DNA of 64,000 bases from assembly GCA_026026165.1 (NCBI GenBank), contig JAPEUD010000065.1, positions 1 through 64,000 of the forward strand. The letters are read 5' to 3'. The notes beneath the pieces were generated by a model. The model searched no databases and was not told the origin of the DNA. It saw only the letters and a program-made list of their open reading frames with translations. Origin of the DNA: Sarea resinae (Eukaryota). Every line of letters begins with the position of its first letter. The stretch's first letter is position 1. Position numbers and translations under genes: made by a program. Below are positions 1 to 17,775 of the stretch, piece after piece.

Positions 1-2850
1 TAGGAAGTTAATTTCTTAGGATTTGTAATTAGGACTAATAGAATTGTAATAGAGAAGAGCTAAGTAGACACTATTAGAGAATAGCTAGCCTCTAAGACCT
101 ACTATAACCTCTAGGTCTTCTTAGGATTTACAAATTTCTACTAAAGATTTATTAAGAAATACTTTATTAAGGCGCTGCTATTAACTAGCCTGCTTGCTAA
201 GAGTAAGAATAGTAAGAAAAGTAGTCTATTCTACTTCTTAGAAGAAGCTAGAGAAGCTTTTAAAGCCCTAAAAGAGGCGTTTACAACAGCGCTAATACTG
301 TGTTACTATAACCTAAAGAGGTAAATATATATAGAAATAAACGCTTCTAGATTTACTGTTATAGCAATTCTATTACAGCTAGTTAAGGATAAAGAGAGTG
401 TCCTAATAGCGTTATAGTAGCACCTAGTTATATACTAGTCTAGAAAGCTTACTAACACTAAATTAAGATATAAAGTGTATAATTTAGAGTTACTAGCTAT
501 TGTTATAGCTTTTAAGCAATAGCGCTACTACTTAGAAAGGGCTAATTACTCTATTAAGGTCTTAACTAACTATGTAAATTTACGCTACTTTATAACTATA
601 AAGGAATTAACCTATTACTAGGCTAGGTAGGCTAAGCAACTAGTAGCGTATAATTTTAAACTTATATATAGAGTAGAGAAAGCTAATCTAGCTAATAGGC
701 TGTTATAGCGCCCTAATTATAAGGTAAAGATATAGGGTCTAGAAGTAATACTTCTTACTCTATAGCAGAAGCTACAGAACCTATATATATTAAAGAGAGA
801 TAGCACTACACTAGTAATTTAAAACCTTCTTACTAGAACAAATAATAAGTATCTAGATAAAATAGGTGCTAATACACCTAAGGATAATATATATCTATAA
901 GAGATTAAAAACCTCTCTAGGCTAGAGAATAACACCTTACCTACTATTAATAAGCGATATAGTTAAGCTAGCTTAACACCTAGCCTAAACCCTATTTATA
1001 ACAATACTAATAAGCTAGTATTAAGAGATAAGTTTAAACACCTCTATATAAGATAAGTAGTGTATAAAGCAGCTGCTAATAAAAGAGTGTATAAGCTGCT
1101 AATAAGCTAGCTGCTTAACGTTATCCTTAGGACTTAGTAAAAAGATCACTTTACTAAGAAGAAGATTAAGAGCATTCCTACTAAAGAGGTTATAAGCTAG
1201 GAAAAGTAGAAAATTAACTCTACTAGCTTGCTGCGCTTAGAAAGTAAGGCTTATATACTGTGTGATACAGCTATTAGGTTAGAAATTATAAGGATAAACT
1301 ATAATAACTTATTTAGTAGCTACTTTAGCACTAAAAGAACAATAAAGGTAATCTAGTGTAAATACTAGTAGATAAATTTAGCTAAAGATATTAAGGAATA
1401 TATTAATAAGTGCAATATATACTAAAGAGTGCAAGTGCCTAGGCATTACTTATATAGCAAACTATAGTTGTTACCTATACTCTACTAGCTATTTAAAGAA
1501 ATTACTATAGATTTTATAATAGGCCTACTACTAAGTAATATAAGAGATTATAAGGCCTGCAATATAATAATAGTAGTAGTTAATCGCTATATAAAGATAG
1601 CGAAATATATTCTATACTAGATAAATCTAAATACTGCTATACTTACAGATATATTTGTTAACGTTATAATAACAGTGTATAGCAACCTAAAGCGTATTGT
1701 ATTAGATAGAGGCAATGTATTTACAAGTAAATTTTAGTTAGCTATATACTATTAAATGCAAATTAAGAACTAGCTTAGCACTACCTTCTACTTACAAATA
1801 GATAGGCAAACTAAGAGGTAAAACTAGATATTAGAACACTACTTACAGTGCTATATAAGCAGCTGCTAGGATAACTAGGCCTTGCTATTACCTATAGCTA
1901 AGTATATATATAATAATAGCATACATTTATCTATAGAAATATCACTCTTCTATACCTTATACAGCTATAACTTAGATCTACAACTTAATATTATAGATAA
2001 TACTATAGAGAGAGAGGTGCTAGTAGTAAATAAGCGCTTTAATATTCTTTAAAGAGTAAGATAAAGACTAGAAGAGGATCTTACTAAGGTATAGTAGTAC
2101 TAAGCTAAGTAGTATAATAAGAAATATAAGCTAATACAATATAAGATAAGTAATAGAGTTATGCTATTAGCGTGTAACCTTAGCACTATACACCTAAGTA
2201 AGAAGTTAAAGCACTACTATATAGGCCTATTTATAGTACTTAACTCTATAGACAAGCAAGCCTACTAGTTATAGTTGCCTAAGGCTTATAGATCTATCTA
2301 TCCTATGTTTTATATATTGCTACTTAAGCGCTACTATAGTAATAGTAATACCTTAGACTAGCACTTAGAGCTAGTTAATAGTTAGGTTAAGTAGATTATT
2401 AAGAAAATCCTAGGCTATAGAGTGCTTAAAAAAGAGTAGCAATATCTAGTTAAGTAGAAAAGAGCTCTAGTAGATAATACTAGCTAAGAACTAGTAGAGC
2501 ACCTAGTAAACGCTATAGACCTAGTATAGAAATATAAGTAGCACTTACTCTCTAACTAGTATAGAGGCCTAGTAAACAAAGAATAGAATGCTAGTATGCT
2601 GTTAACTAAGCCCTAAGGTTAGCTAAAGAAATAACTACTTAATAACAGCGTTATAAAGGCGCTAGCTAAGAGACTAAAAGGCTGCCTAAGAAAGAATCTA
2701 CTTCTTTAAAAGACACCTTTAAGTAGTGTAGAGGTGCTAGTAATAAAGCGCCTGCATAAGAGGCTATAAAAGTATAGGCTAAAGCTATAAGTAATTATAA
2801 AAAGAAGACCTTATAGCTGTCTAAGAAAGGACACGCTGTTATAGCACTAG
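1..2850 (+). pseudogene. Gypsy pol remnant (RT C-term, RNase H, integrase, GPY/F, chromodomain, AT-hook tail) with many RIP-generated stops
   Basis: The motifs lie in frame +1 in canonical order. Stops are TAA/TAG at positions expected to be CAA/CGA/CAG/CGG/TGG. The chromodomain reads ILG..V.K...YLVK*K......S*E..EHL.NA. Confidence 0.9.
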
Positions 2851-3205
2851 TAAAGAGCTGCTATTAGAACTCTTTCTACTTCTTTTACCTATAAAGGTTT
2901 TTAAGTAGTTTTAGTAAGCTAGTAAAGAGGTAAGCCTGTAATACTATAGCATGCTAATAGTGTATAGTCTCTATAAAAGGCTATTAGGTAATAGAGTAAT
3001 AAAGCTATATAGCTATAATACTACAGTTATAAGAGGAGATAAAGTTATAGAAAAGAAAAGTAAAATTAAACTCTAGCGCTATCCTAGCGCGTAGCCTACA
3101 CAATCTAGTATATAAATAGAAATAAAAAGACTACTATCTTATTACCTAACTACTTTGTCCTACCTAACTCTAAAGGCTCTAATTAGCTTAATTGCTAGTA
3201 TTCCT

Positions 3206-3825
3206 TTAAAGCATTATATTATTATTATTATCCTTATCTTTACTCTTCTCTATACAACAAATTAAGGGCAGATTATACTATTAACATAAGTTAGCGCATG
3301 TAATAAGCTAAGAGAGCGCTAGGTAAACTTATAGCAAAGCGTAGGATATTATTAAGCCTTTTAACCTTATTAGCTAAACGCTCTATTACTATTATAGTGT
3401 AAAGGGCTAGGTCTATTAAGTAGCAGTTTATAGCGTTAATATAGGCCTTAATATAGTGTGTATAACGCTTCTATTTAGCTTATAGAGCGCTTATAGCTAG
3501 CTCTTATACAGTGTTATTAGATACTATTACTACTACTATATTAGTAGCCTTTAAAAGCCTATTTAAGCGCTTAAAGAACTTAGTTAGCACCTTATAAAGC
3601 TATAGGTTAGAGCCTATAAAGCGCTAAGCATAAGCTACTATAACTTACCTTACTACACTTCTTATATAGTCTTAAACAACGCTTACACTTTGCTAAAGAG
3701 AAGGTGTATATATATATAATATTAGAAAAAGTCTTAATAGACTTAGAACAATATAGGTAAAGCTTTTAATTAAGCTTTAGCTACTCTTTTAAGCTAGAGT
3801 ACAACTTGTTTACCTTTAAAGGCAT
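3206..3825 (-). pseudogene. RIP-mutated three-exon accessory gene inside the retrotransposon, Cys6 zinc-cluster-like plus helical region plus acidic tail (~168 aa)
   Basis: ATG at 3825. Exons are 3825-3649, 3590-3333 and 3277-3206, each a multiple of 3. Introns read GTAAGT..CTAAC..AG (3648-3591) and ATAAGT(=RIP'd GTAAGT)..GCTAAC..TAG (3332-3278). Exon 1 reads Y-L-Y-C-SKS...-Y-...-K-C-K-R-C-L-R-L-Y-K-K-C. Confidence 0.7.
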
Positions 3826-4242
3826 AGTAGCTTAAGAGCGTAGTATATTTATAGTGTAAGAGAGGTAAGGTATATAGGTATATAAGTATATAGAATATAC
3901 TTAAAAATATAGTGCAAAAGGTTTAATTATATATATATATAGTAGATCACCTATGTTTTATACCTACACCTCTATAGCTAAGTAACCTCTAAGTAATAGA
4001 GAGAATACCTAATATAGATAGTTTAAAGTATTTACCTTATCTATTTATTGCTGCTACCTTAGTATAACGTTTAGTAAATAAAGCAAACTAGATAAAGAAC
4101 TCTCTTTATTATCTATACTAATTTACTAGTTGCAGCAAATAGCAACGCTACTAAGGCGCTAGCAAAATAAAGACTTAACACTATAACATTATATATTGTA
4201 AATAAAGGACTTAAAGAACTAGGCTCTAAAAGAGAAGGTAAT

Positions 4243-4545
4243 TATAAGGGCTACTATTAATAGAGGTGCTATATATAACTTAGTGTAGTATAGAGTAACT
4301 ACTTAGTGTAGTCTAGCAACGTTTAGGTAAGCTAAGTAAGGTTATTATTTATATAGATTAATAGAGGTGCTAGCTATTAGAGCTAGCGTTTAGTGCAATT
4401 ATAAAGTTAGTGCCTACTAGTAATATTAATTGTATTAGTTCTGTATTACTAGAGTAATACTAGTATGCTACAGTGTACTAGCCTATTTAATTGTGCTATT
4501 CCTACCTACTCTACTATAGCTAGAAGTCTAAGAGGTAACCTAACA
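4243..4545 (+). repeat. Putative 3' LTR of the Gypsy element, preceded by a polypurine tract (4228-4238)
   Basis: Purine run AAAAGAGAAGG, then TAAT, then TATAAGG (RIP'd TGTGAGG-like start). The segment ends CCTAACA at 4545, a TG...CA-type terminus. It contains the short internal direct repeat ATTAATAGAGGTGCTA twice. The 5' LTR is not in the window to confirm. Confidence 0.55.
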
Positions 4546-5138
4546 CTTATATACCTATATTTGCAAAAAATATTAAATATCTTAGATTTTTTAGGTGATC
4601 TAAAATTTAAAAATCTCTATATTAAAATAATATTATAGTTTCTATAGGTGCTAAAAATTAAGTAGTGTTAAACTTATAAGACTATTACACTATTCTAGTA
4701 CTATACTACAATCTTTAATACAGTTATAAGTGTTAAACTAGTGAACTAGTCTTAATTCTAATTTACTACAGTTATAGGATATACTCTTATAGCACTAAGG
4801 TAATTAGAAGTAGCTCTAGAGGTACTTAAGTACTTATTTAGCACCTTTCTCTACTTATCTATCTATTCTACTTTCTAATAGCAATTAAAAGGTTATTTAA
4901 TAATCTAGCTCTTAAAAGCACTAAGGAGAAGTACTAAGTAGAATATGTAACTAGATTTTACATAAGCTTTTACCTTAATATTAATTGATTTTTTATAATT
5001 ATTTAAAAAAGGATTATATTATAATTGTTGTTACTAGTACCTTATACTACCTACCTAGCTCTACAGCCTCTGTTTTCTATATTGCGTAAAGTAAAGCACG
5101 CCTTTGCTATATTCCACTGTACTGCCAGATTGCAATCC

Positions 5139-6038
5139 TTACTCAATATCGACCTTTTTGATCTCAACGTACTCCTTGTCTTGCTTTGGTATGCTGATGC
5201 GCAAAACACCATCTTCCATTTTTGCACCGATAGTGTCTGGATCTACAGCAGCTGGGTGTGCCCTGCTTCCCAACCTGACCTTCCTCTCAAAGGCGCCGAT
5301 TTTCCTTTCGTCCATAGCCAGCGTCTTCAAGAATTCCTCGTCGCCGGGTCGATAGATGACGCCTGCAACACTTAACTCACTCTTGTCGGCGTCCCAATTC
5401 ACTCCAACATCCTCCTTCTTTGCACCGGGAAGAGAGACGTGGACAATATATGTATCTTCGGTATCAAAAACGTCAACCGGAGGAGCAAAGTCCTTGCCAT
5501 CTTGATCGTGGATCTGATCGGCACGACCAGTGCTGTCCGCATTGCCCTCCTCTGCCGCGCCGTTGCGTAGGTACGACATGAAGAATTGTGCAAATGGATT
5601 CATGAATGGAGCCATCCCATTCCAACCGTTGTGATTCGTATCTCTGCCGCAGCCGCGGCCTCGATGAAAGGGCCGACCGCGTCGTCCCCCATGCGGCGGC
5701 TGTTCTCCACGATGACCGCCTTCGTATGGCGGGGGAACTTCTTGCCCAGGTGGCCCTTGAGGTGGCCCCTGAGGCCCGGAAAAGCCGTCACCAGGCGGTG
5801 GCGAACCTTCGTGGTGCGGCAAATCTCTAGGTGGTGGGGGACCAAATGGGAAGCCCTGGAAGGGAAACCCTCGTCCCTCTACAGGGCTATCGTGCCTCCC
5901 CCAAGAAAAGCTACTCGGCCCAGGGCGAGCTTGGGGACCGAAAGCGGCAAACATTGGGTGTGACGTTCCTTGATCCTCGATGCTGGCAACAAAGTCCCAG
6001 AAGGGTGCAGACTGATTGAAGTATTCAACAGAAGGCAT
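5139..6038 (-). CDS. HSP20/alpha-crystallin family small heat-shock protein with a Pro/Gly-rich N-terminus
   Basis: C-terminal alpha-crystallin domain: PPVDVFDTEDTYIVHVSLPGAKKEDVGV...ERKIGAFERKVRL...AKMEDGVLRISIPK. First ATG is at 6038 (the track's ORF starts at a TTG). Confidence 0.92.
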   Translation of the reverse strand: MPSVEYFNQSAPFWDFVASIEDQGTSHPMFAAFGPQARPGPSSFSWGRHDSPVEGRGFPFQGFPFGPPPPRDLPHHEGSPPPGDGFSGPQGPPQGPPGQEVPPPYEGGHRGEQPPHGGRRGRPFHRGRGCGRDTNHNGWNGMAPFMNPFAQFFMSYLRNGAAEEGNADSTGRADQIHDQDGKDFAPPVDVFDTEDTYIVHVSLPGAKKEDVGVNWDADKSELSVAGVIYRPGDEEFLKTLAMDERKIGAFERKVRLGSRAHPAAVDPDTIGAKMEDGVLRISIPKQDKEYVEIKKVDIE

Positions 6039-7438
6039 AGTGTTCAAAATCCAGAGATCGTTTTGATGACAAGATAAATGTAAAGTACGTTTGAGATTGC
6101 TTATGGGTAATGTTGGGATGAAGAATAGGACAGGCGAAATTGAAGCAGATTATATACATTAATTATTCCTTCAGGCAACATGGTCTACGTAGGCAAGCGC
6201 GTGGACAGTTTGCCACAACAGTAAAGAGAATGCCGGCAGAAGGTAACATAGAAGTGTGAAGAAGAGACTAGAAAGACAAAGAGTCACACACATAGACTCA
6301 TGACAGGTAGGCTGCCAGAGCCGCGCGTCAGGTTGTGACACGCGGAGACGAACATGGCGAAAATCAGGTTTGGGACTCAGAGTAGGGACTGCTCACGTAT
6401 TAGAATGCTATAGTGGTTGCATGTGATCGCAACTAAGAGGAAACATTAAGTGTCTGACTGCAAAATTGGTAAGGATCAGAATAAGCAAGGACTACTCCTT
6501 AGAGCTAGGGAATAGAGACATTTGAGGCAAACAACAAGGTAGAGTAATAATCAAAGATAGCGAAACAAGAAACAATAGAGAAGTAGGCAGGAGGCGAAAA
6601 CAATACGCAGTAATACTCAGTACGAATACTACTGTACTCTGTAAAATACCTACCTAACCACTACTGCGTACGAAGTACCTTAAGGTATCTTACCACTGTA
6701 TGTGAGGTAGCCTGTTTCGGTTAGCCCGCTTGTTTCGGGCACCCCGCTGTTGATGTTTACTTTAGCAGTACTATGAGTATAAGGTTGTGTGTGCCCTTTA
6801 AAGTGATAAGTCAACGGAAATAAGTGATATGTTCGCTTGATGACAAGTAATCAGTATTCTAGTGTATTCCTTCGGTCTATAGGCTAATAAAAGTCCCTTT
6901 CAGATATTTTATAAGGTTAATACTACTTGCTAAGGTATCTTATTGCTTTAGTTTAATACCTATCTATAAGGATTGTTTTTAGTATTCCTTTTTTACCGTC
7001 CCTCTTTGTCCCTGCTTTAATCTAGTTATGTACTTACCTTGCTCATCTACATACGCTAAGAATTGTGTCTACAGACGACTTCTATTTCTTGCCCTTCTAA
7101 TTGACCAAGGGCTCTTTACAGATAGCTAGAAAATGTGTACACATAGCTATCTATATTTATTGGAATACAACATGTAGACCAATTACAAGCAAGAACTCAA
7201 GGTCCCTTTTGGCTTGATGTCCGACAGTATTGCGATCACTACTTCGTAATTTGTTTACCGGTAGGTCCTTACTCCAGCGTCTGCGATTATCATGTAGCTA
7301 GTAAAGATGGAGCTTGTTCACGGGCCCGGCGCCAGAGATTCCAGGCCGATACGCCAACTTTCACGCGTTCGCAGCCAATTTCCATGACCAGCGCATTTCC
7401 GCACCAATCTCAAGTGGGCCATAGGAGCGCAACCTGAA

Positions 7439-7471
<33 letters not shown>
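7439..7471. repeat. Poly-G homopolymer (33 nt)
   Basis: Directly visible. Confidence 0.95.
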
Positions 7472-7472
<1 letters not shown>

Positions 7473-9324
7473 CCGCCAAGAAGAGCAGGGCAGTATCCGT
7501 GACGCTTACGTGCTAGCAGCAGCGCAGTGGATATTGTCGTATGCGCAGAGCCTGTTCAAGCAGGCCATACTTCTGATAGATGTTTTCTTTGCTCACTAGC
7601 AGCTTTCGAGACCAGGTCCGCTCTACGATGGCAAAGCATGCCTTTCTCTCCGTATATGGCATTTTCGGAGAGACGGTTTCAAGACTATTGCTTCCGGGGA
7701 GGAGAATAGGTTCAGTCAGGAGCGTAAAAAGTTGGCGGCGAAAGCGGCCGCGATGGACTCGTTGTAGAGAAATATGACGTTTTGACAAGTCCGACAGACG
7801 GGCTGTCTTTTCCTCTATTTCCCAGTCTTATGCAATTTAATGCGATGGGCTTTTTACCAGCGTCCTAGAGCTTTTCTTTTTTCCCCCATCCTCCTCCAAA
7901 CAGCTCAATCTGAATAGCAAATCGAGCAGCATGTACATGCGTTGACTATCGTGTCATGATTTGGCCAATGCCTTTCACTTGCGTCTCGAAAGACTGCTCA
8001 GGACTCGAGAAATTCTCTTCTGCCTATAGTTGAATATACAACCTAGGCACAGCTATCTCCGAGCAAGAGCTACTCTAATTTGGTATTAGAAAGGTTCGTG
8101 GAATTGGTGCGGTCAAAGTATCGTACCTTACTGCGCAGGAAGCAGGGGACAGAGTACCGCACCGCCAGCCAAGGAGACACGGTAATCTTATCTGATTTAT
8201 AGATATGATAAGTATCCTTGAGTCTTTCCCCACGGTACCGTACCTACCTTAGGCACCTACTAGGGGAGGTGCCTTAGTAAGTAGAGTATGGACTGGAGTT
8301 CAAGGTGCTTCTAGATCTACGGAGTGCCTAGTCGAGGTAATTTCCGCCAGGATTTTCAATCACATTTTCCTACCTGCCTAGGTACCTTAAAGCTACTGCG
8401 TATCCTGTACTTTCATGACTCCACATTTTTTCATAGATACTTTCGTCTCTCATTTTCTTCCATCACTGTTAGAAAGTCATCCAAACCAGTTCTGTTTTCG
8501 CCCTCTTCGTCGCACAGGTCTCTAATAGTAGATATCAGGCATTGACGTTTCTATCCTTCGGTATAAAGGCCGCTCTCTTTGAAAGCAGCTTCAAGAGGTA
8601 CGCTATCCCAATCTCAATACATCTACCCACTACTTCTGTCCTTTGATTCTTTGTTCTCTGCTGCTCTGTTTTGTCCGTGGACCTGCACCAGTATTGTGCT
8701 AAATGATGAATTCCAAATACTTCACAGACCTGTTCTGAACCTCAATGTAGAGATTCTTTGGATACATTCTGATTTATTGCGATTGTTCTCATTGTGAACG
8801 CTCGTCAATTACTAATATCTCATGAGCTAACAGCTTGCCCAGAGAAGCACGCCCTTGTTGTTGTTCGTTTGTTTGGAATTATCAAGCAAGGTCGATATGC
8901 TTTATCAAGCGCACGGATATAATTCTGTCCTAGCTTCTCGTTCCTTATCGCTCAGTTGTTGAACAAGATATTCTAAAATTTACTACACAGTATTTGGCGG
9001 CACACCTATCAGAGAGCTCATTCAATACTAATACTGTTTAAAAGAATAGCATTAGTGTCTTTGTTTAGATTCTGTGAAACTGATATGTTGTTCGCAAACA
9101 AGCAATCTTCACCAACGATGCCTTGTAGACAAGGCAAGCCATTGTCTGCTCGCAACAGGGCAAACCATGACAAAGAAGTGAACAATTCTAATACGCCTAT
9201 TGTTGTTGCTTTATCTAAATATCTCAAGAACGTTGTTTTCACAGCCTCGGATAGACTATATATTGGATTACGCTTCTGCATCCTGTGAGAGCTCTACCCA
9301 AAAGATTTTCCGTAGACAAACAAG

Positions 9325-11211
9325 ATGACTATAGAAGGAACAACAAATGAATTTTTCTTGGAGAAGAATGGTGAGCAGGTCTCCTTTTCCTCCGTTCGAT
9401 CTCCGGCGTATATCCATCCACCGACTTCGGCTGGGTTGGATAGCCTCTTTGGCGATTTTCTGTTTGAAGATAGCCCAACCAGGCAGCAGGCTCAAGTCGA
9501 TACTACTGCCAAAGGAAATCAGCGACGATGCCTGCAGTTTCCGCCCACGAGTGCGATAAGTGCGGAGGTGCCGACACATTCGTTCCCTTCCAGAACGTCC
9601 CGGATTGCCCCTCAGGATACTCGCACCCCTGGTGATACCGGTTCACCACATGCTTTTGATCTGGGTTGGTCCCCAACTCGCGGACAGAACTCTATATCAA
9701 ATACAGGAGATAAATGCTCAAGGTCAGAATCGGGTCATGGATATCTTCATCCACAAGCGGCAACAAGCGTACGCTCTGAAAACCCAAGCCTCGCTTCACC
9801 ATCTCATATCGACTGGAATCAGCTAGACCTGCCTGTCTTGGATGATTTTCTCTTCTCTCAGCCTTACTCTGTTGATAATATCTGGAGTCCGCAATCTCAA
9901 AAGCAATCCAAGGTGTCGTCTCCAATTGCTACAGCGAAGTTTGCAGAAGATGGAGCTGCTGGGAATTGCGGGCCTTTGTCAACCTTGACCGAGCTGCCTC
10001 TACAGACTCTAAAGGACACCCAGCCAATTCCGATTGATCCCAGGCTCTTGACTTCGAGCGCTCCCGGAAATTTCACAATACCACAGTCTGTCATTACAGG
10101 GCATGGTGTTGAGACATCGGGGTCAACACCTTCGGAAGTGCCAAGTATGCCCATTGAGAGCGGCCAGATTCTTGAAATACAAACCACGTCCCCAGAAAGC
10201 ATCATGGAACTAGACGAGCCGAAAAATGATTTGGAAGAAAGGGAAAAAGGCTGGATCAGAACGAACAAATCAAAGGGAAAATACTCGCGGGCAAAGAAAA
10301 TCGCCGAATTCGATCCTAAGAAGGTATATAATCCTCTCACGGTAGCTCCATTGCAATGGGGAGCTTTCAATTACACGTCCGAAGGTGAGCTTGAAGCAGG
10401 TAGGCCCTATACGGTCAAGCAGATCGAGACATTCCTCTATGAACATCCTTTACATCAGATTCGAGGCCCGAAAGAAAGTGGGCTACGCATCTGGATTCAG
10501 CGTGTCCCCGCCGATTCTGCTAGACGCTATCCTACACAATGGTCTTCCAAATGTCGCTTTAGCAATTGCTGCGAAACGACCAGGAAGATATCCGTTGGTC
10601 ATTTTCGTGTCGCCTTCGACGAGCAGAGCCACAAGAACCAAGGTACGGATCCCCTCATCAATGCAGGGTATGTTCATCTGTTTTGTTTGGAGAAGTACTT
10701 AAACTTACCTCAGTTGATATCTGACCTTAACGTACGTGTTGACAGCAGAATACTTACTGCGGAAGTCGATGGCGTCAATCGAATGAGTTTGGGCCATCGA
10801 CAAGTCAACGCGGAAGCAGTTCGATTCGTGCAAGAATGTGAAGAAGGCTGGATTCCACGTGGTTATGCCCTTCATCCTCGAGGATCAGGTACCACCAATC
10901 ACCAAGGATCGTTGACCTATAAACTTCATGTTGCGAAGATCGATGAAGAACCTCCAAGCAGGCAGAAGGTAAGAGAGAAGAGAGGTGATAAGACAACCTA
11001 CCACAATCATCATCTTGGAAACTTAGACCTCCTGGCTCAGGAGCGTGAGATTAACAAGAATGTAGGCTTCCTGGACATGCCAGAAAAGAGCCGACGCGCT
11101 GCACAAACGAAAGGGAAAAAGAGAAAAGCTCAAGATCTGGTAGAGTTAGACTGTGAGGAGTCGCTGAATAGTGGCCGCTCAGAGACCTCTAAGAAGCTTA
11201 GGAAGAGATAG
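9325..11211 (+). CDS. Uncharacterised 628-aa protein: disordered N-half, C-terminal Cys/His domain, basic NLS-like tail
   Basis: Long intact ORF. Ordered C-half WIQRVPADSARRYP..KCRF..C..GHFRVAFDE..AGYVHLFCLE; tail KGKKRK/KKLRKR. Upstream exons are possible. Confidence 0.8.
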   Translation: MTIEGTTNEFFLEKNGEQVSFSSVRSPAYIHPPTSAGLDSLFGDFLFEDSPTRQQAQVDTTAKGNQRRCLQFPPTSAISAEVPTHSFPSRTSRIAPQDTRTPGDTGSPHAFDLGWSPTRGQNSISNTGDKCSRSESGHGYLHPQAATSVRSENPSLASPSHIDWNQLDLPVLDDFLFSQPYSVDNIWSPQSQKQSKVSSPIATAKFAEDGAAGNCGPLSTLTELPLQTLKDTQPIPIDPRLLTSSAPGNFTIPQSVITGHGVETSGSTPSEVPSMPIESGQILEIQTTSPESIMELDEPKNDLEEREKGWIRTNKSKGKYSRAKKIAEFDPKKVYNPLTVAPLQWGAFNYTSEGELEAGRPYTVKQIETFLYEHPLHQIRGPKESGLRIWIQRVPADSARRYPTQWSSKCRFSNCCETTRKISVGHFRVAFDEQSHKNQGTDPLINAGYVHLFCLEKYLNLPQLISDLNVRVDSRILTAEVDGVNRMSLGHRQVNAEAVRFVQECEEGWIPRGYALHPRGSGTTNHQGSLTYKLHVAKIDEEPPSRQKVREKRGDKTTYHNHHLGNLDLLAQEREINKNVGFLDMPEKSRRAAQTKGKKRKAQDLVELDCEESLNSGRSETSKKLRKR

Positions 11212-11410
11212 TCTTACTCTTAGCTTCTAGGAAGGTGGTATATTTATCACATAGTTTGTTGTTGGCCTAATAGTTTGTATATCGATCTATAGAAGGTATT
11301 CTGAAAATAGCCAAACACTATTATTTCGAATGCTCATGATTTACGTGGCTTTGTACTTCTTCAGACTCAGAAATTGGCTTGAAAGGTTGTATCTATTAAT
11401 TGTGATATAC

Positions 11411-12935
11411 TTATTCAAGTCTTCTAGCCACCCAATGTGAAGCTATGTATGTATTTTGTAGCATGCTTCTTGGATCCTGTATGTAACCACTCTCCCCGCC
11501 GTGTGCCATATGCCTCTCTATCTTGAACCCACTACTTTCAATCAAGAGGATAACTTCTTCGTCGGTGAACTCTACACTGCCAGCACCCGCGATTCCTTTC
11601 TGCTGTCTGTTCCGTTTCGTCTCAGGCTGTTCCTCTCCAGCGGTTTCCTTTGGACCGAAATTGCTGTCTTCGAAGTGCCAAAGCAGAGGGCCAAAATTTA
11701 TCCAGATACCCTGAACCTTCAGACAATTTCGAATCGTAGATATATAATTCATCAGATTTGGTGCCGTGTCAACAAAAAACACTGTCGCCACAGCATCATA
11801 ATAACCTCGGTGTGACGTGTCGCTATAGAGTAGAGCAAAGTCGGCCGCAGACATGCTCAACCTTTGGGAAGCCGGCGTTATCGTATGACTTGAAGCTTCA
11901 CCTAGAGCTGTTCCTGGATGAATGTCTGGTATCATGACTCTTTGTAACTGATGTTCACGAGATACGTGGTTCGAAAAGCTGAGTGCCCAAGGAAAAAGTT
12001 CCATCCTTTCAGTGGCACTTGTACGATTAAGAACAAAATTACTGGCCATGAGCTGGTGGTATGAGATCTCGTTGCCTTCCGTCCAAAAGCCCGCTGCACA
12101 TATCTCGAAAACGAGCCTTCCTAGACCGGCTCCAGGCACCAGAACTTTGATTGCCCCTCTATCTTGACAGGAGAGAAATTCGTGCTCCAGATCGGTAAGT
12201 ATAGGGCCATAACAGGCTGCTCTCTCTTCAGCACCTTCTGCACTCCAATCACGATAGAACTGTCGAATCGTGGAGCGCGCCTTGTCGAGATCAGAAGGAG
12301 TGGCTGTTCCACGCCAGTCCCGTGATTCCTCTGTCGGGACTGCATCAAGTCCAAACCCCTCGAGACCAGCTTCAAGTATTGCAGAAGCGATGTCCGCGTT
12401 TTTGTCGATGGCGTCGTCAACCCGCTCGAATGTGTCCAGGATAGAAAAGGGAGGGGCCGCAAGTACTTGCCATTGTGCTGAAGGAAGGGCGTAGAAGTTT
12501 TGACGTCGCCGGTGAGTCACGTTCAAGTGGGCTACCTTGCGATATTGACTGCGAGCATGAAAACTTAAGCAGTGCAACCTATACTACCTGGTAGGTAGGA
12601 TTCCAAGTTGTGCAGGCTAATCAAAAATCCAGTAAGGAAACGACGGGCAAAAAGACTGTCTGATTCCGCCCTCAAGCACGAGCGGTCAATGCTATAGGTA
12701 CGGGACTAGGACCATCTTACTCGCTGAACAACAGCACACAAAGTGAACGTAGGAACGGTCGAGCTGAAACAAGGAGGAGACACATCGATTTGAGGTGACA
12801 CTGACAAGGAGATTTCACCTACCAGAACGAATCCAATGCAGCAAATACAACTCGCTTCTCCTCTGGATCCGAAAGCGGATCAAATTCTCCACTCCACTCT
12901 CCTTCTCCCTTCCCGCCTCCTTCTAGTAATGACAT
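11411..12935 (-). CDS. N2227-like SAM-dependent methyltransferase (carnosine N-methyltransferase family)
   Basis: Motifs IRQFYRDWSAEG, VLVPGAGLGRL, EGNEISYHQL, TVFFVDTAPN and WINFGPLLWHF. First exon MSLLEG...DPEEKRVVFAALDSF starts at ATG 12935, followed by a ~270-nt intron. Confidence 0.92.
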
Positions 12936-13194
12936 CCCGATGCACAAGTAGTACTCTTCAGGGTAGTTGAAGGGTGGGCTCGAGATCGATTGCCGAATGT
13001 CTACCTCTACTACTTTACCTACCTACCGTACCTACCTTAGGATCTGTCGGGACTAGGCCGGAGATAAGCTGCCGCGCGCTTCTTACCTTATCAATTTCGC
13101 TCCGGAAGAAGACGCATACTACTACTTCAAGGACCTCCGAGCCAGCAAAATTTGCCTTTTAGTCAACTAATATATTCCACGATACCTTTTGGAA

Positions 13195-13713
13195 ATGTCA
13201 TTCAACGCTCACAGCGACCGGCCAACGAAGCGATCAACTTCCATGCCACCAGTTCAGATTTCCTTCCCTCTTCCCAGTGCCCCCCACACGACGATTCACC
13301 TGCACCTCACTATTTTAACGAGCTGTGTATTGCTCTTCCTCACCACCGCTACAGGCGAATCAAGTGGTCCTTGTGCCTTAGGAAGTTTTGTATACTCGAT
13401 GCCTGATGTATGTCGCCGAGCCCGTCGACAATCACGTAAGGCTAATGTTCTACAGCGGACGTGTTCGACGAATGCTATCCACACGCCGTTATATGTCCGA
13501 GAGTCATCCCTCGACTTCACGACTCGCATAGCAAGGATACTAGCAAGCAGGGTTGGGAAGCCCATCTACGTGGGTAACAGCATCTCACTTTCGAGTACCG
13601 GTTTGGGGGGTACTGTAGAGGAAGAGATGGAGAGTCTGGGGAAAGTGGTTGAACTGACCCTCCGCGAGATCGAGAGGGCCAGCAATGGTGGCACTCCCTT
13701 GAAGAGCCAGTGA
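13195..13713 (+). CDS. Proteasome assembly chaperone 4 (PAC4/Poc4)-like protein
   Basis: FPLP..PHT.IHLHLT, LGSFVYSMP, HTPLY, DFTTRIARILA.R..KPIYVG and VEEEME match the fungal PAC4 pattern. One in-frame intron at ~13408-13455. Divergent from the N2227 gene by ~260 bp. Confidence 0.75.
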   Translation: MSFNAHSDRPTKRSTSMPPVQISFPLPSAPHTTIHLHLTILTSCVLLFLTTATGESSGPCALGSFVYSMPDVCRRARRQSRKANVLQRTCSTNAIHTPLYVRESSLDFTTRIARILASRVGKPIYVGNSISLSSTGLGGTVEEEMESLGKVVELTLREIERASNGGTPLKSQ

Positions 13714-13820
13714 TTCATCGCTCCCATTCTATCGTCCAGCACAAGCTTAAGCTTCATGTGTTCGAAGCGAGAAACATCCATACAAGAGCGCAACTTAGGG
13801 TGGACTCCAGATCTGGCAAA

Positions 13821-14794
13821 TTATAATTTGCTTCCAGCCAAATGTTTTCCACCGTCCAGAACGACGACAGCCCCGTTGACATGGCTGGCGGCCCTGCTAC
13901 ACAGGTAAACAACTGTGCCCGCAATATCCTCCCCCCTACCCAACCTCTTCGTTGGATTGGACGCAGCCATAGCTTCCTGGCCGCCTGTCAGCTCCAAGAG
14001 TCCGTTCGACATTTTGGATGGAAAAAAGCCAGGAGCTATAGCATTGCAGAGGATGTGTCGCGGTCCAAGCTCAACGGCAAGATTCTTAGTGAGATGTATC
14101 ACGGCTGCTTTTGAAGCTGAATAACCGAAAGTCGCATTCTCTCCCAAGGATCCGATCCCGATTCCGGCGACGGAAGCCGTAATGATCACACGGGAAGGAT
14201 CTTCTGCTGTTGCGTTCTTCTGCAATAATGGCGCAAACCTTTCCAATTACCATCAGCTTCGCTATGATATAAATCAAGCGGAGGGTATACATCATAAAGA
14301 AAGATCTCACAATCGTATTGTATTGAAGACACTCTTCACATTCAAGTCCATCACCTTCCCGAAAGCAGTGTCCGAGTGAGTGTCAAACTTCTCGCCCCAG
14401 GTAGCTCCTGCATTGGCGAAAAGAATATCGACATGATCGGTCGTTTGCTCTACTTCCGCCACCAATCTCTCCACTTCACTGAACTTTGCAATGTCCGCAG
14501 GTATAGGAATTGCCCGCGCGCCCTTGCGGATGTTCGGAAGGGCATTGAGGGCGGCGCAAGCTTCTTCGCATGCTTTGGCCTTGCGGGAAGTGATATAAAC
14601 CTTAGATGCGCCGGCTTGCAGGTAGCTATAAATTGAAGATCGAGTCAGTCCGCCGAGAACATTTGTAGTTTGCCCGTGGGAAGATACCCAGATGCCGCGT
14701 GTAAACCAAGTCCACGAGAGCCTCCCGTTACTACAATCACCTTGCCGTCAAGGGAGAAAATGCTTTCGAAATCCTTGAGCTCTGTCTCCGCCAT
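13821..14794 (-). CDS. Short-chain dehydrogenase/reductase (RhlG/FabG-like)
   Basis: VVTGGSRGLG Rossmann motif, FANAGATWG, YSASK catalytic motif, NAIAPGFFPSKM and VNGAVVVLDGG. Two introns. Confidence 0.93.
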
Positions 14795-15190
14795 GGTAAC
14801 GATGTAGATCAGAAGACAAAACACGTCCCAGTATAGCACGATGCTTCGAAATACGTCGCGGTGAGCTTCAGTCTTCCAGAAGGTTTGACTTGAAGCTCTA
14901 GCTCGCTCCTTTTCTGTTCACAAGCGCTTACTCACAACTACATTGCTGAAATGCATCAGCCTGCGAGCAATCCTACACCCACCAGATCGTGCCTCGGTCC
15001 GGAGTTACGTTCGGGCCAGTTGGCACCTTGTCCTTTACAGGGTAGGTACCTACAGTACCTACTGCTTAGTACGGAGTACTCCGGGGTAGGTAGGTACAGA
15101 GGTAATGCAAGGTACATGGTAGCCTGCTGAGGTACCTACAAGGAACTAAACTCGATCTGCAGATTAGTATTCTGACCTTCAAAATCTTCT

Positions 15191-15226
15191 AACGTGCCTG
15201 GAAAGCTGTGGCTTTCCAGGCACGTT
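15191..15226. repeat. Perfect 16-bp inverted repeat with a 4-nt loop
   Basis: AACGTGCCTGGAAAGC-tgtg-GCTTTCCAGGCACGTT. Confidence 0.9.
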
Positions 15227-16450
15227 GTCCTCAAACTACTGTACGATTCGAAGTGCAAAGTTCGTTTTTTCAATTGCGTCATTGTTTTAATATGTGAATT
15301 CCCTGTCTCATGACGGAATGGGGGCCTTCAGCTCTTCCTTATAAGTGGGCCAAACCCGACCTTCTTTTCAATTCTCGCTTTTAGGTACACTAGCAAACAT
15401 GTTTACCACAACAGCGGCTATCAGCATATGCTGATAAACATCCGAGAGGCTATAGAAGGAGATGTGAGGTAGCAGACTGCCTTTCTGGGCCCGAAGGAAT
15501 ATCTGGGTCTAATAATACGATACTCTTACATACGCAGTCACTGCGCTACTATCATCCGTGGAATTGCTTTGACAATGTCGAATGCGTCCGAGCCCCTGAG
15601 CTTGGGATTTGCTGAGCCGTACACCCTGGAAGTGACCACCATTTTAAAGCAAAGCTCAAGATTGAATGTTTCGGATTGGAGTCAAAGTCTGGGCTGGTTT
15701 GCATGGCTTGCCGCACCACACAACCGCCTTATTACTTCAGCTGGACTCAACAACAAATGATAATCAATCACCGGATCTACTAAGACCTATTTATATGGGA
15801 AGCTGGCTCAACCTCTTACGATCTCCGGCTGCCACTCCGATACGTCCTGACTGTATGTTAGCTCAAGGTTAACATATGCAATTCTAGGGTAAATAGGTAA
15901 TCTCACTTGCGTCTGCAACCACGCTCGGTGACATAGCGCTAGAGTAGTCTACAAATGCACGGTATAACATTACTCTAAAAGTTTTGGACTGCTATCTCAT
16001 GCACCAGAACCGGGATATGTGAAGACCATACCTCCTATACTGGGATTGTCACACATTGAATTCCACTAATCGATTCTATTAAGCCTAAGCTGTGCATTGC
16101 TGGATAAGCTGTATACTATAAGATAGCAGCTCCATCACAGTCTCCATATTTGAGTGTGTAAACAGGTCTTGCGGACTTCTGAGTACCTAATCAGCATATG
16201 TCATTGTCTCTGGCCCGAGCGAGATCCGGAGCAGGCATTAGAGCAAGAAACTCAGCTTACTTTAGCAATGGATTCTGGCTATCCATAGATCCGATAGGTT
16301 TTGATACTGCATCAGACTCCTCTGGTAACGCCCTCAAGCTATCCATGTAAGATCGTAGACTCTGCAGGAGCTCTGTACCATTGGCTTTATTCGGAGCAGT
16401 CTCGTTCTGCGCCTGGCACAGGCTCGTCGCGGTGTCTCGGAAGCAGCAGT

Positions 16451-17452
16451 CTACCCTGCACTCTGGATCACGTCATCTAAAAGTCCGCCTAACAGTCTCC
16501 AGCTTAATTGCCCACTGGCTAAATCCTGGTAATCGTCCTCTGCCGCTCTTCGGCACACCTCCCGTATCGCATGCTCATTGACCCTGACCACAAATCCTCT
16601 CTCCGTGATCATAGTCACAGATGCGCTCTGGGAGTCCCTTCCCACTAAGCCCTCTGCTCTCAAAAGCTTCACTAACCATTCGTCTGAGACTCCTCCCCCA
16701 ACCGCGTCGGTCACCTGGTGAATGTCTATCCAGGACTTGGAGCTTAGAGTTTCTCTCACGATTTCAAGGGCCATCTTTCGTCTTGTAAACTCTTCCTCCA
16801 CCAGTCTCTTCTCTTCGCCTCTTCTTTCCTCCCGCTCGATCAATTTTTTCCTCTCCAGCTGCCGTGCAAATTCCGCTCTCCGTCTCCTCTCTTCTAGTAT
16901 CTCACTTTGAAGAGCTTCCTCGACTTCCCTTTCTCGCGCTCTTTGCGCTTCACCTTGAGAACGAACAAATTCATGATAAGCCCGCCGTTGGTCGCGGCGG
17001 GCAAGAGATGCGGCTTTCTTTTTCCCAATCTCTCGAGCGCGAGCATTGATTCGAGGTTCTTGTGCTGGGTGTAAGAGACCTCGTTGAGGGTCTGCCGGAA
17101 CTGTACCAGGATCATTGACGGGGTCGAAGTTAACGTCCCCTCGGTTTTCTACCCAGTTGAGGGGCAGATCGTTCTCTCTAGTCGCCGGCCCTAGCTCGCC
17201 AACTTCCTCCAGATCCTCATCGTCAGCTTCAACTAGGTCCTCGGACTGATATTGTGGAGAGACGGTGTTTCCTTCTTGAAGTGAAGACTCGTCGGCCCTT
17301 TGCCGAAAGTAGCGGAGTGCTAGATAGAGAATAGAGCAGAGAACAATCGAACGAAAGACGTCCTGCGCCAGCGACGTTCCGGGTGATGCGAACGGTAATA
17401 GTAGGTTCAGGGCGTATTGAAAGCTCAGTAATGAGCTCTTAATTATCTCCAT
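16451..17452 (-). CDS. Membrane-anchored coiled-coil protein, DDRGK1/UFBP1-like
   Basis: N-terminal hydrophobic segments, an acidic linker, IGKKKA..LARRDQRRAY and an E/R coiled coil. The C-terminal winged-helix-like region ends TMITERGFVVRV, compared with the DDRGK motif GV.DDRGKFIY. Confidence 0.65.
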   Translation of the reverse strand: MEIIKSSLLSFQYALNLLLPFASPGTSLAQDVFRSIVLCSILYLALRYFRQRADESSLQEGNTVSPQYQSEDLVEADDEDLEEVGELGPATRENDLPLNWVENRGDVNFDPVNDPGTVPADPQRGLLHPAQEPRINARAREIGKKKAASLARRDQRRAYHEFVRSQGEAQRAREREVEEALQSEILEERRRRAEFARQLERKKLIEREERRGEEKRLVEEEFTRRKMALEIVRETLSSKSWIDIHQVTDAVGGGVSDEWLVKLLRAEGLVGRDSQSASVTMITERGFVVRVNEHAIREVCRRAAEDDYQDLASGQLSWRLLGGLLDDVIQSAG

Positions 17453-17775
17453 TACGATGCAAGATCAGGACGCAGTGAGAGCTCACTCCCACACTTGAAA
17501 GCTATCCGGCCATGTCAAGACCGTCGTTCTTGTTTTTGAAGCAGTGGGTGTTTGGAAGCCATATTCATCCGTGGGAAGGGAAATGGCCATCTGTACATAC
17601 AGCTTACGAGAATGCCCCTCGCACAAAATAAGCGCACGCCAATTGTTAATCTCGTCGCTTAAGGTGACGACATTAGTTGCCCGAGGTAGGTAGTCAGTCA
17701 CCTACTTCATATCTAAGGAAGACCAGACAGCTCAAGGTAAAGGACTTCCCACCATCATGCTGCTACAAGAACAAA

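Follow-up and report, generated by a model that had tools for sequence, protein, structure and literature searches.

Remnant of a spliced antisense gene for a six-cysteine protein in a RIP-degraded retrotransposon region of Sarea resinae

The first 64,000 nucleotides (nt) of contig JAPEUD010000065.1 of Sarea resinae (GenBank assembly GCA_026026165.1), referred to below as the window, begin with an AT-rich block that holds the degraded 3' part of a Ty3/gypsy retrotransposon pol gene and, downstream of it on the opposite strand, the remnant of a small gene with three exons and two introns. On the alignments described below, this is a genuine spliced gene. The copy in the window is dead, with five in-frame stops and a broken intron 2 donor, and it was inactivated by repeat-induced point mutation (RIP), as seen from its dinucleotide indices and from C>T/G>A changes, which are in excess when an intact homologue is taken as the reference. 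The reading that we favour, with a probability of about one half, is that of a one-off gene of host type which was trapped or captured once and then killed by RIP.

The gene and its intact homologue

The gene model comprises the following features.

3649..3831, minus strand: exon 1 remnant, six-Cys module; the ATG-based exon, 3825-3649, has 59 codons with 2 stops, and tblastn similarity starts from 3831
3591..3648, minus strand: intron 1, 58 nt; donor GTAAGT, CTAAC, acceptor AG
3333..3590, minus strand: exon 2 remnant, helical middle of the protein; 86 codons, 3 stops
3278..3332, minus strand: intron 2, 55 nt; donor now ATAAGT, branch-like CTAAC, acceptor AG
3155..3277, minus strand: exon 3 remnant, coding for a tail that is first acidic and then rich in Gly/Gln; the exon as first read, 3206-3277, has 23 codons plus TAA

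The start ATG of the gene is at 3825-3823 on the minus strand. A phase-0 spliced gene with three minus-strand exons opposite pol had been proposed in an initial annotation made from the letters of the window, and all three exons were found to match a known protein in order and without gaps. This protein was obtained when the exon 2 reading, with stops as X, was compared by phmmer with 1.84 billion representative proteins (expectation value, E, 1e-12). It has 194 amino acids (aa), is called P0003 here and is NCBI entry KAI9829878.1, 'MAG: hypothetical protein M1819_005976 [Sarea resinae]'. Four other phmmer matches (575-3,580 aa) were set aside as composition-driven; P0004-P0006 were matched in 3-4 stretches and look repetitive.

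BLASTP aligned exon 1 with residues 10-67 of P0003 (40% identity, ungapped, E 2e-14) and exon 2 with residues 68-153 (43% identity, ungapped, E 2e-23). The match of exon 3 with residues 154-167 is non-significant alone (E 9.8), yet it is exactly adjacent to the exon 2 match. Searching the whole window by tblastn with P0003 gave E 1.8e-25, and no second P0003-like copy was found by that search. The junctions between residues 67 and 68 and between residues 153 and 154 of P0003 fall exactly on both proposed splice sites. The residues read across intron 1 are also borne out, with KKCSK before and VLTKFFKRLNRL after the junction in the window and KKCSQ and VPTVFRKRLNRL at the same places in P0003.

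Most of the intron signals first described are present, namely the intron 1 donor, both CTAAC sequences and both AG acceptors; the intron 2 donor is not, the sequence there being ATAAGT so that one G>A reversal is needed to restore it. With intron lengths of 58 and 55 nt, the frame is lost if the introns are read through. Past the TAA at 3208-3206, first taken as the end of the gene, the frame keeps its register with residues 177-194 of P0003 to about 3155. Among the 18 codons beyond this TAA, four are identical to P0003, nine could be reached by C>T/G>A changes and five are neither. This TAA is probably not the ancestral stop, and the alignment places the ancestral gene end some 50-60 nt past it.

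The codons were compared with P0003 over 168 aligned positions. Sixty-six are identical, 60 differ from a codon for the P0003 residue by nothing other than C>T/G>A changes, and 42 are neither, while the same test in ten shifted registers gave 5-15 identical and 19-38 reachable codons. Expressed as a share of the mismatches, 60 of 102 are of the C>T/G>A-only kind in register against 19-38 of 153-163 in the shifted registers. Exon 3, compared codon by codon in this register, has 5 identical, 14 RIP-reachable and 4 other positions. Three of the five in-frame stops can be reached from the Arg or Gln aligned with them in P0003. The composition of the gene (GC 0.307, TA/AT 2.11, (CA+TG)/(AC+GT) 0.43) is like that of pol. 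Because 42 of the 168 codons differ beyond what RIP would explain, the window gene would be an orthologue or an old paralogue of P0003 and not the same gene.

P0003 is a singleton in its cluster and is encoded on one contig of 139,551 bases. No further relatives were found among 561 near-length and 4,194 longer word-sharing candidates, and it looks like an ordinary single gene. In metagenome contigs, 593 pattern matches were obtained with none confirmed, and nothing matched a degenerate motif of 50 nt designed on ERLA..LN.ILRFA, a conserved stretch. With the exon 1 reading as query, a word-based search of proteins returned no candidate. Feature matches in the ESM Atlas, to unnamed ascomycete clusters at 0.86-0.90, lie within the range of shuffled proteins and were rejected. 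The window locus and P0003 define an orphan family of two members, whose six-Cys module has not been described before and is similar to the fungal Zn2Cys6 cluster without matching it.

Taken from the window alone, the evidence for a gene is modest and suggestive. Random 2250-nt sequences with the composition of the locus, 100 for each of Markov orders 1, 2 and 3, were read with two freely chosen GT..AG introns; 24, 21 and 30 of them, respectively, gave a 168-codon reading with at most five stops. The best path at the locus has three stops and was reached by 4, 0 and 2 of the 100 random sequences. The true pol frame scores 4-5 stops by the same free-intron measure, as does part of the pol antisense strand. 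A stop-free run of at least 59 codons is present in 23-35% of 500 random sequences and C-x2-C-x6-C in 2.5-9% of 200 random 5100-nt sequences. Intron-like sites of the form donor..CTAAC..AG number four in 10.2 kb over both strands, and two of the four are the claimed introns; their scarcity is a better internal signal than the stop counts.

The stop counts and open runs, together with the lack of a Pfam match in six frames of 2851-5102, are what can be said for there being no gene, only a chance reading drawn from RIP-made AT-rich DNA through free introns and reversals. The alignments refute it, P0003 being an independent protein that matches every exon in order, in frame and ungapped, with its junctions at the splice sites, and we put the probability of such a reading close to nil.

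The antisense frame of pol (1-2700, minus strand) was seen to be almost as poor in stops as pol itself, with 5-11 against 4-10 per 100 codons, and with free introns it has 3-4 stops per 168 codons. Low stop density alone is thus no mark of a gene in RIP-affected DNA.

Copy number and surrounding repeats

The AT-rich block extends from 1 to about 5100, with GC 0.25-0.34, TA/AT 1.55-2.78 and (CA+TG)/(AC+GT) 0.28-0.58. This composition is the signature of RIP in a filamentous ascomycete. In the remainder of the window GC is about 0.45-0.58 and the RIP indices are normal (for comparison, TA/AT 0.55 and (CA+TG)/(AC+GT) 1.38 at 5101-6200), and normal fungal genes are present from 5139 onward. The features around the gene are as follows, LTR standing for long terminal repeat.

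1..2850, plus strand: 3' part of a Ty3/gypsy pol, RIP-degraded; start off the window; Pfam matches with stops as X
2395..2538, plus strand: chromodomain-like end of pol; PF00385 Chromo E 0.009, 16.3 bits (cut-off 25.1), profile positions 2-51 of 53, scanned alone
3049..3060, plus strand: purine run AGAAAAGAAAAG, alternative polypurine-tract candidate, disfavoured; depth falls after the run
3187..3894, no strand: single-contig-depth segment; bins 3187-3363, 3364-3540, 3541-3717 and 3718-3894 have depth 439, 389.9, 389.9 and 535
4228..4238, plus strand: purine run AAAAGAGAAGG, polypurine-tract-like; just before the high-depth repeat; one of six runs of at least 10 nt in 1-5100
4243..4545, plus strand: putative 3' LTR; within the region's highest-depth repeat; ends TA..CA; 7 of 14 terminal bases inverted-complementary
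4957..5100, no strand: edge of the AT-rich block; single-contig depth 371.6 (its own contig, record 8); GC 0.257, TA/AT 1.69

Copy number was judged from contigs of one public DNA run (X1; 0.90 of words) aligned to 1-5300 at a likeness of at least 80%. X1 was the only public run listed for this DNA, with no RNA run among those listed. X1 is possibly the window's own source, its contigs are short, the filter removes some records and the summed depth is not a copy number. The locus's own contigs have depths of 372-390, and the one that carries the gene (record 6, 3032-4154) has depth 389.9 and no differences. Over bins 3364-3717 the summed depth is exactly that of this contig alone, and both flanks are about 7-125 times as deep. 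The pol bins reach 6,394-17,487, and the stretch between pol and gene has depths of 2,752, 11,098 and 5,210. To the right of the gene the depths are 4,412 and 9,790, then 48,278 and 31,422 in bins 4249-4425 and 4426-4602 (against about 380 for the single-copy contigs), then 2,245-2,705 to 4956, with single depth from 4957. Sister depth is 7,323 at 3016 and 6,397 at 3983, and by interpolation within the bins sister similarity would stop near 3133 and resume near 3952. A likeness of 90% or more was found for 1,478 of the 1,779 aligned contigs, so that any sister copy of the gene would be expected to pass the 80% threshold.

There thus appear to be sister copies of the flanking repeats without the gene. 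The initial annotation had taken the gene to be encoded by the element and had named absence from sister copies as what would refute this, and such absence appears to be what the single-contig bins record. Runs X2 and X3, from other organisms of the same study, gave four and zero contigs, short or partial, and are no evidence either way. The sole joint reported skips 4425-4504, in two contigs.

It is because many sister copies of the flanking repeats are without the gene that a one-off event is preferred. The gene would have been small, of cellular type and interrupted by two spliceosomal introns, present once in the genome and lying antisense between a chromovirus pol and an LTR-like high-copy repeat. 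It may have been a host gene trapped between retrotransposon pieces, or a single copy of the element may have captured it as DNA on one occasion. RIP would then have destroyed it, together with the surrounding repeats or spilling over from them, leaving a copy without function. Support comes from the edge of the block at 4957-5100, where RIP-like composition (GC 0.257) reaches DNA of single-contig depth, and from P0003 being a singleton on a long contig for which further relatives were not found in the searches above. Host origin, RIP spill-over, zinc binding and a putative nuclear function are what we infer. The DNA-binding, dimerisation and activation parts that the initial annotation proposed, and the self-regulatory or anti-silencing role that it derived from them, are likewise putative.

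Several observations weigh against a one-off host gene. The geometry, with the gene past pol, antisense, and followed by a purine run and a five-fold rise in depth at the LTR candidate, would suit a gene borne by the element, and both near flanks have depths similar to those of pol. No contigs were found that join the two flanks directly. The single-depth segment is tight on the complete coding region: by the same interpolation it leaves a margin of about 20 nt past the final codon of the alignment and of about 120 nt ahead of the ATG, and so looks more like a cassette than a randomly trapped piece. The mutation of the gene to the level of the repeats is easier to explain if the gene was itself repeated when RIP acted. 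The copy evidence, moreover, is one run of short contigs that may be the window's own source.

These points bear on a different explanation, in which the gene is an accessory antisense gene (aORF) of a rare chromovirus sub-lineage, present here in its last copy in the genome and killed by RIP. Such a gene would have its own promoter and be transcribed in the direction of pol. Retrotransposition would leave its introns in place, as they are antisense to the genomic RNA. The statement in the initial annotation that standard Gypsy elements encode only gag-pol was too strong, a fungal precedent having been published (PMC7264820). Boty-like retrotransposons with a CHROMO domain in Botrytis cinerea are described as carrying an additional gene, brtn, which lies antisense in the interval from pol to the 3' LTR, and the arrangement is also described in Sclerotinia (PMC7264820, PMC4227169). 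The architecture as such is therefore already known in fungi. A Monilinia transcript is reported to resemble truncated Pol and BRTN (PMC5987419). Since the Botrytis Boty sub-families are described as differing in the completeness of brtn, absence of the gene from sister copies is compatible with a rare sub-lineage (PMC8365987).

The accessory gene is further favoured by its position and orientation relative to pol, by the fit of the purine run and the high-depth LTR-like repeat, by the complete coding region lying within the tight single-depth segment and by RIP as heavy as in the repeats. Identity to P0003 before RIP may have been up to 75% (126 of 168 codons), which is high for an orphan if the fungi are distant. 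Against it, at a likeness of at least 80% the gene is covered by its own contig alone while its flanks carry many, and P0003 is a singleton on a long contig without a detectable paralogue or relative. In a published account, aORFs in one or few copies are described as transduction-like and those in most copies as conserved accessory genes (PMC7264820). The antisense orientation of an aORF is seen here (pol on the plus strand, the gene on the minus strand); presence in most copies of the family is not seen in this one run, with contigs only and an 80% threshold. An accessory gene of this kind is a tentative possibility. It is somewhat unlikely that the region represents, in full, a chromovirus sub-lineage of fungi related to Sarea with a two-intron accessory gene, antisense between pol and the 3' LTR, for a divergent zinc-cluster-like protein, of which the window holds the only, RIP-killed copy in this genome.

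The element itself was identified from pol, in which the parts occur in the order end of reverse transcriptase, RNase H, integrase, SH3-like part, chromodomain-like part and basic tail. Above-cut-off Pfam matches are RT_RNaseH_2 (2e-18), RT_RNaseH (4.7e-16) and SH3_Tf2-1 (9.4e-10); Integrase_H2C2 (8.2e-05, 23.1 bits) is under its cut-off of 25.5. That Integrase_H2C2 and Chromo fall under their cut-offs is expected because the reading is RIP-degraded (GC 0.30, TA/AT 2.04 for pol). It is reasonable to regard the adjoining element as a Ty3/gypsy chromovirus, its chromodomain match being weak. The end of pol near 2850 was placed by eye from the rising stop density. Past the chromodomain-like part, two basic stretches are seen in the pol frame, AKRLKGCLRKN (2670-2700) and KRRPYSCLRKD (2805-2835), which by eye could be RIP-altered GRP-type AT-hook motifs; Pfam gave no match over either.

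Pfam and contig depth support the placing of the gene downstream of a Ty3/gypsy pol, with a purine run and then a high-depth repeat covering the LTR candidate on its other side. The depth rise at about 4249, the purine run at 4228-4238 and the TA..CA ends, with their weak inverted match, fit a putative LTR at 4243-4545. No second copy of 4243-4545, and no repeat pair that would define an LTR, was found in scans of the window (repeats, tandem repeats, 1-7000); the 5' LTR would lie off the window. Nine contigs have in common an unrelated GC-rich sequence just before 4295. The stretch 4249-4602 may be an LTR, a solo LTR or another short repeat that also occurs in non-RIP contexts. A 3' LTR starting at 3061, after the purine run at 3049-3060, was considered and rejected as depth falls there and does not rise; three sister contigs continue with closely similar sequence past 3058. 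The purine runs AAAGAGAAGG (3695-3704, plus strand, inside exon 1) and AAAAGAGAAGG are near-identical, which is probably a coincidence.

Beyond the edge of the block, the open reading frame (ORF) at 5139-6149 is by eye that of a small heat-shock protein (alpha-crystallin-type, HSP20-like), the 3' end of which adjoins 4957-5100; the AT-rich block ends within about 40 nt of it. Just past this ORF a second, small AT-richer patch is seen at 6501-7000 (GC 0.376, TA/AT 1.78), where 6490-6515 and 6540-6561 match the pol region weakly over 22-26 nt. The patch may be a short RIP-affected repeat fragment.

The six-cysteine module

Exon 1 had been read as containing four TGT codons and two Tyr codons, TAC and TAT, that would revert to Cys, and all six are Cys in P0003 at the same spacing. 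The pattern in P0003 is C-x2-C-x11-C-x8-C-x2-C-x6-C and the corresponding codons in the window are TAC, TGT, TAT, TGT, TGT and TGT. The helical middle and acidic tail that had been read from exons 2 and 3 likewise agree with the sequence of P0003 and with its model. This model, made with AlphaFold2 from the single sequence, is poor (mean pLDDT 56). In it, residues 28-65 are predicted to form a small Cys module of helix-hairpin-helix type, long helices follow at 68-92, 94-123 and 128-154, and the tail is disordered. From its secondary structure, the three exons would match three protein modules. The ancestral protein would have had about 170-195 residues, with an N-terminal six-Cys module from exon 1, a three-helix middle from exon 2 and an acidic low-complexity tail from exon 3. 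Foldseek comparison of the poor model with the PDB gave nothing at E 0.001 or better, the matches being generic helical bundles at E of at least 0.43. P0003 belongs to no Pfam family and has no PDB sequence match at E up to 10.

The canonical spacing of a Zn2Cys6 cluster is C-x2-C-x6-C-x5-12-C-x2-C-x6-8-C. Membership of that family, which the initial annotation had proposed to examine with PF00172, is not supported: PF00172 gave no row for exon 1 (E up to 1), for the six frames of 2851-5102 (E up to 10) or for intact P0003 (E up to 10), and the first loop is x11 and not x6. The canonical pattern is absent from every frame of 1-5100. Using the C-x2-C-x6-C of exon 1 as the first half of a canonical cluster was tried and rejected, since past 3649 a C/Y pattern that would fit is absent from every frame. 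The sole Pfam row for the three exon readings and the six frames of 2851-5102, TCTP at E 0.067, was taken as noise.

For the ESM Atlas model of P0003 24-72 the nearest structural neighbours are mostly Zn(2)-C6 clusters, with template-modelling (TM) scores by query of 0.57-0.75 over 38-47 residues, a TM above 0.5 meaning little for such short stretches. A Zn_clus part is aligned in 4 of the 10 neighbour rows listed (TM by query 0.57-0.66), and other rows are clusters that bear a Zn(2)-C6 name or have Zn_clus in part; the neighbours are a lead only, and the Atlas rates all these rows 'under the bar: name no family'. It is acceptable to call the six-Cys module zinc-cluster-like and not a PF00172 family member, and the module encoded by exon 1 in the ancestral protein would probably have bound zinc.

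That the gene encoded, in whole or in part, a canonical Zn2Cys6 transcription factor of the Gal4 type is quite improbable. Like the Gal4 type, the module has C-x2-C-...-C twice, its six Cys being arranged as 2+1 / 2+1, it has a basic C-x2-C-x6-C triad and its predicted structure has the Zn_clus-aligned and Zn(2)-C6-named neighbours. The basic triad is the second one (CTRCARLHKKC); the first triad of Gal4-type clusters is basic. Unlike that type, the protein is small, at 194 residues for P0003, and lacks the fungal transcription factor middle domain that is the usual regulatory part; its first loop has 11 residues where the family has a fixed 6, and neither the profile hidden Markov model nor the PDB returns a match.

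Comparison with known systems

The initial reading of the letters recovered the gene through heavy RIP, including both introns, the two lost Cys and the splice-junction residues. As P0003 bears this reading out, RIP-scrambled blocks can be mined for genes that ORF finders miss. What else the gene means depends on its origin. If it is a trapped host gene, it would be an ordinary further case in which RIP destroyed a gene within a block rich in repeats. If it is element-borne, fungi would have, besides Boty brtn, a second case of independent origin, and the gene would extend the little-studied antisense accessory genes of fungal LTR retrotransposons, for which brtn was the only example found in a literature search. 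No earlier accessory gene of this class would have had a module recognisable as of DNA-binding type, and transcriptional control encoded by the element would be suggested.

The closest comparison is with P0003 itself, which is collinear with the whole window gene and has the same Cys spacing, junction residues, helical middle and acidic tail; it is intact, whereas the window copy has the five stops and the broken donor. Inactivation of single-copy genes by RIP spreading from adjoining repeats is known from Neurospora and Leptosphaeria. The window gene is like these in being at single-contig depth between repeats and in having RIP-type composition and codon changes. It differs in being mutated as heavily as the repeats, typical spill-over being lighter.

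The aORFs described in plant LTR retrotransposons have the same orientation as the window gene and, given its putative 3' LTR, the same position, with hints of nuclear or DNA-binding roles; as compared by description, they belong to non-chromovirus lineages and are present in most copies of their families (PMC7264820). Nothing named BRTN surfaced as similar to P0003 in a word-based search over lengths of 106-340, which is a weak test. Boty brtn, as it is described, is like the window gene in being a further gene of a fungal chromovirus region, antisense to pol and placed ahead of the 3' LTR, which in the window is a putative one. It differs in that brtn is part of an element family in several Sclerotiniaceae, whereas the gene in the window is found in one copy only.

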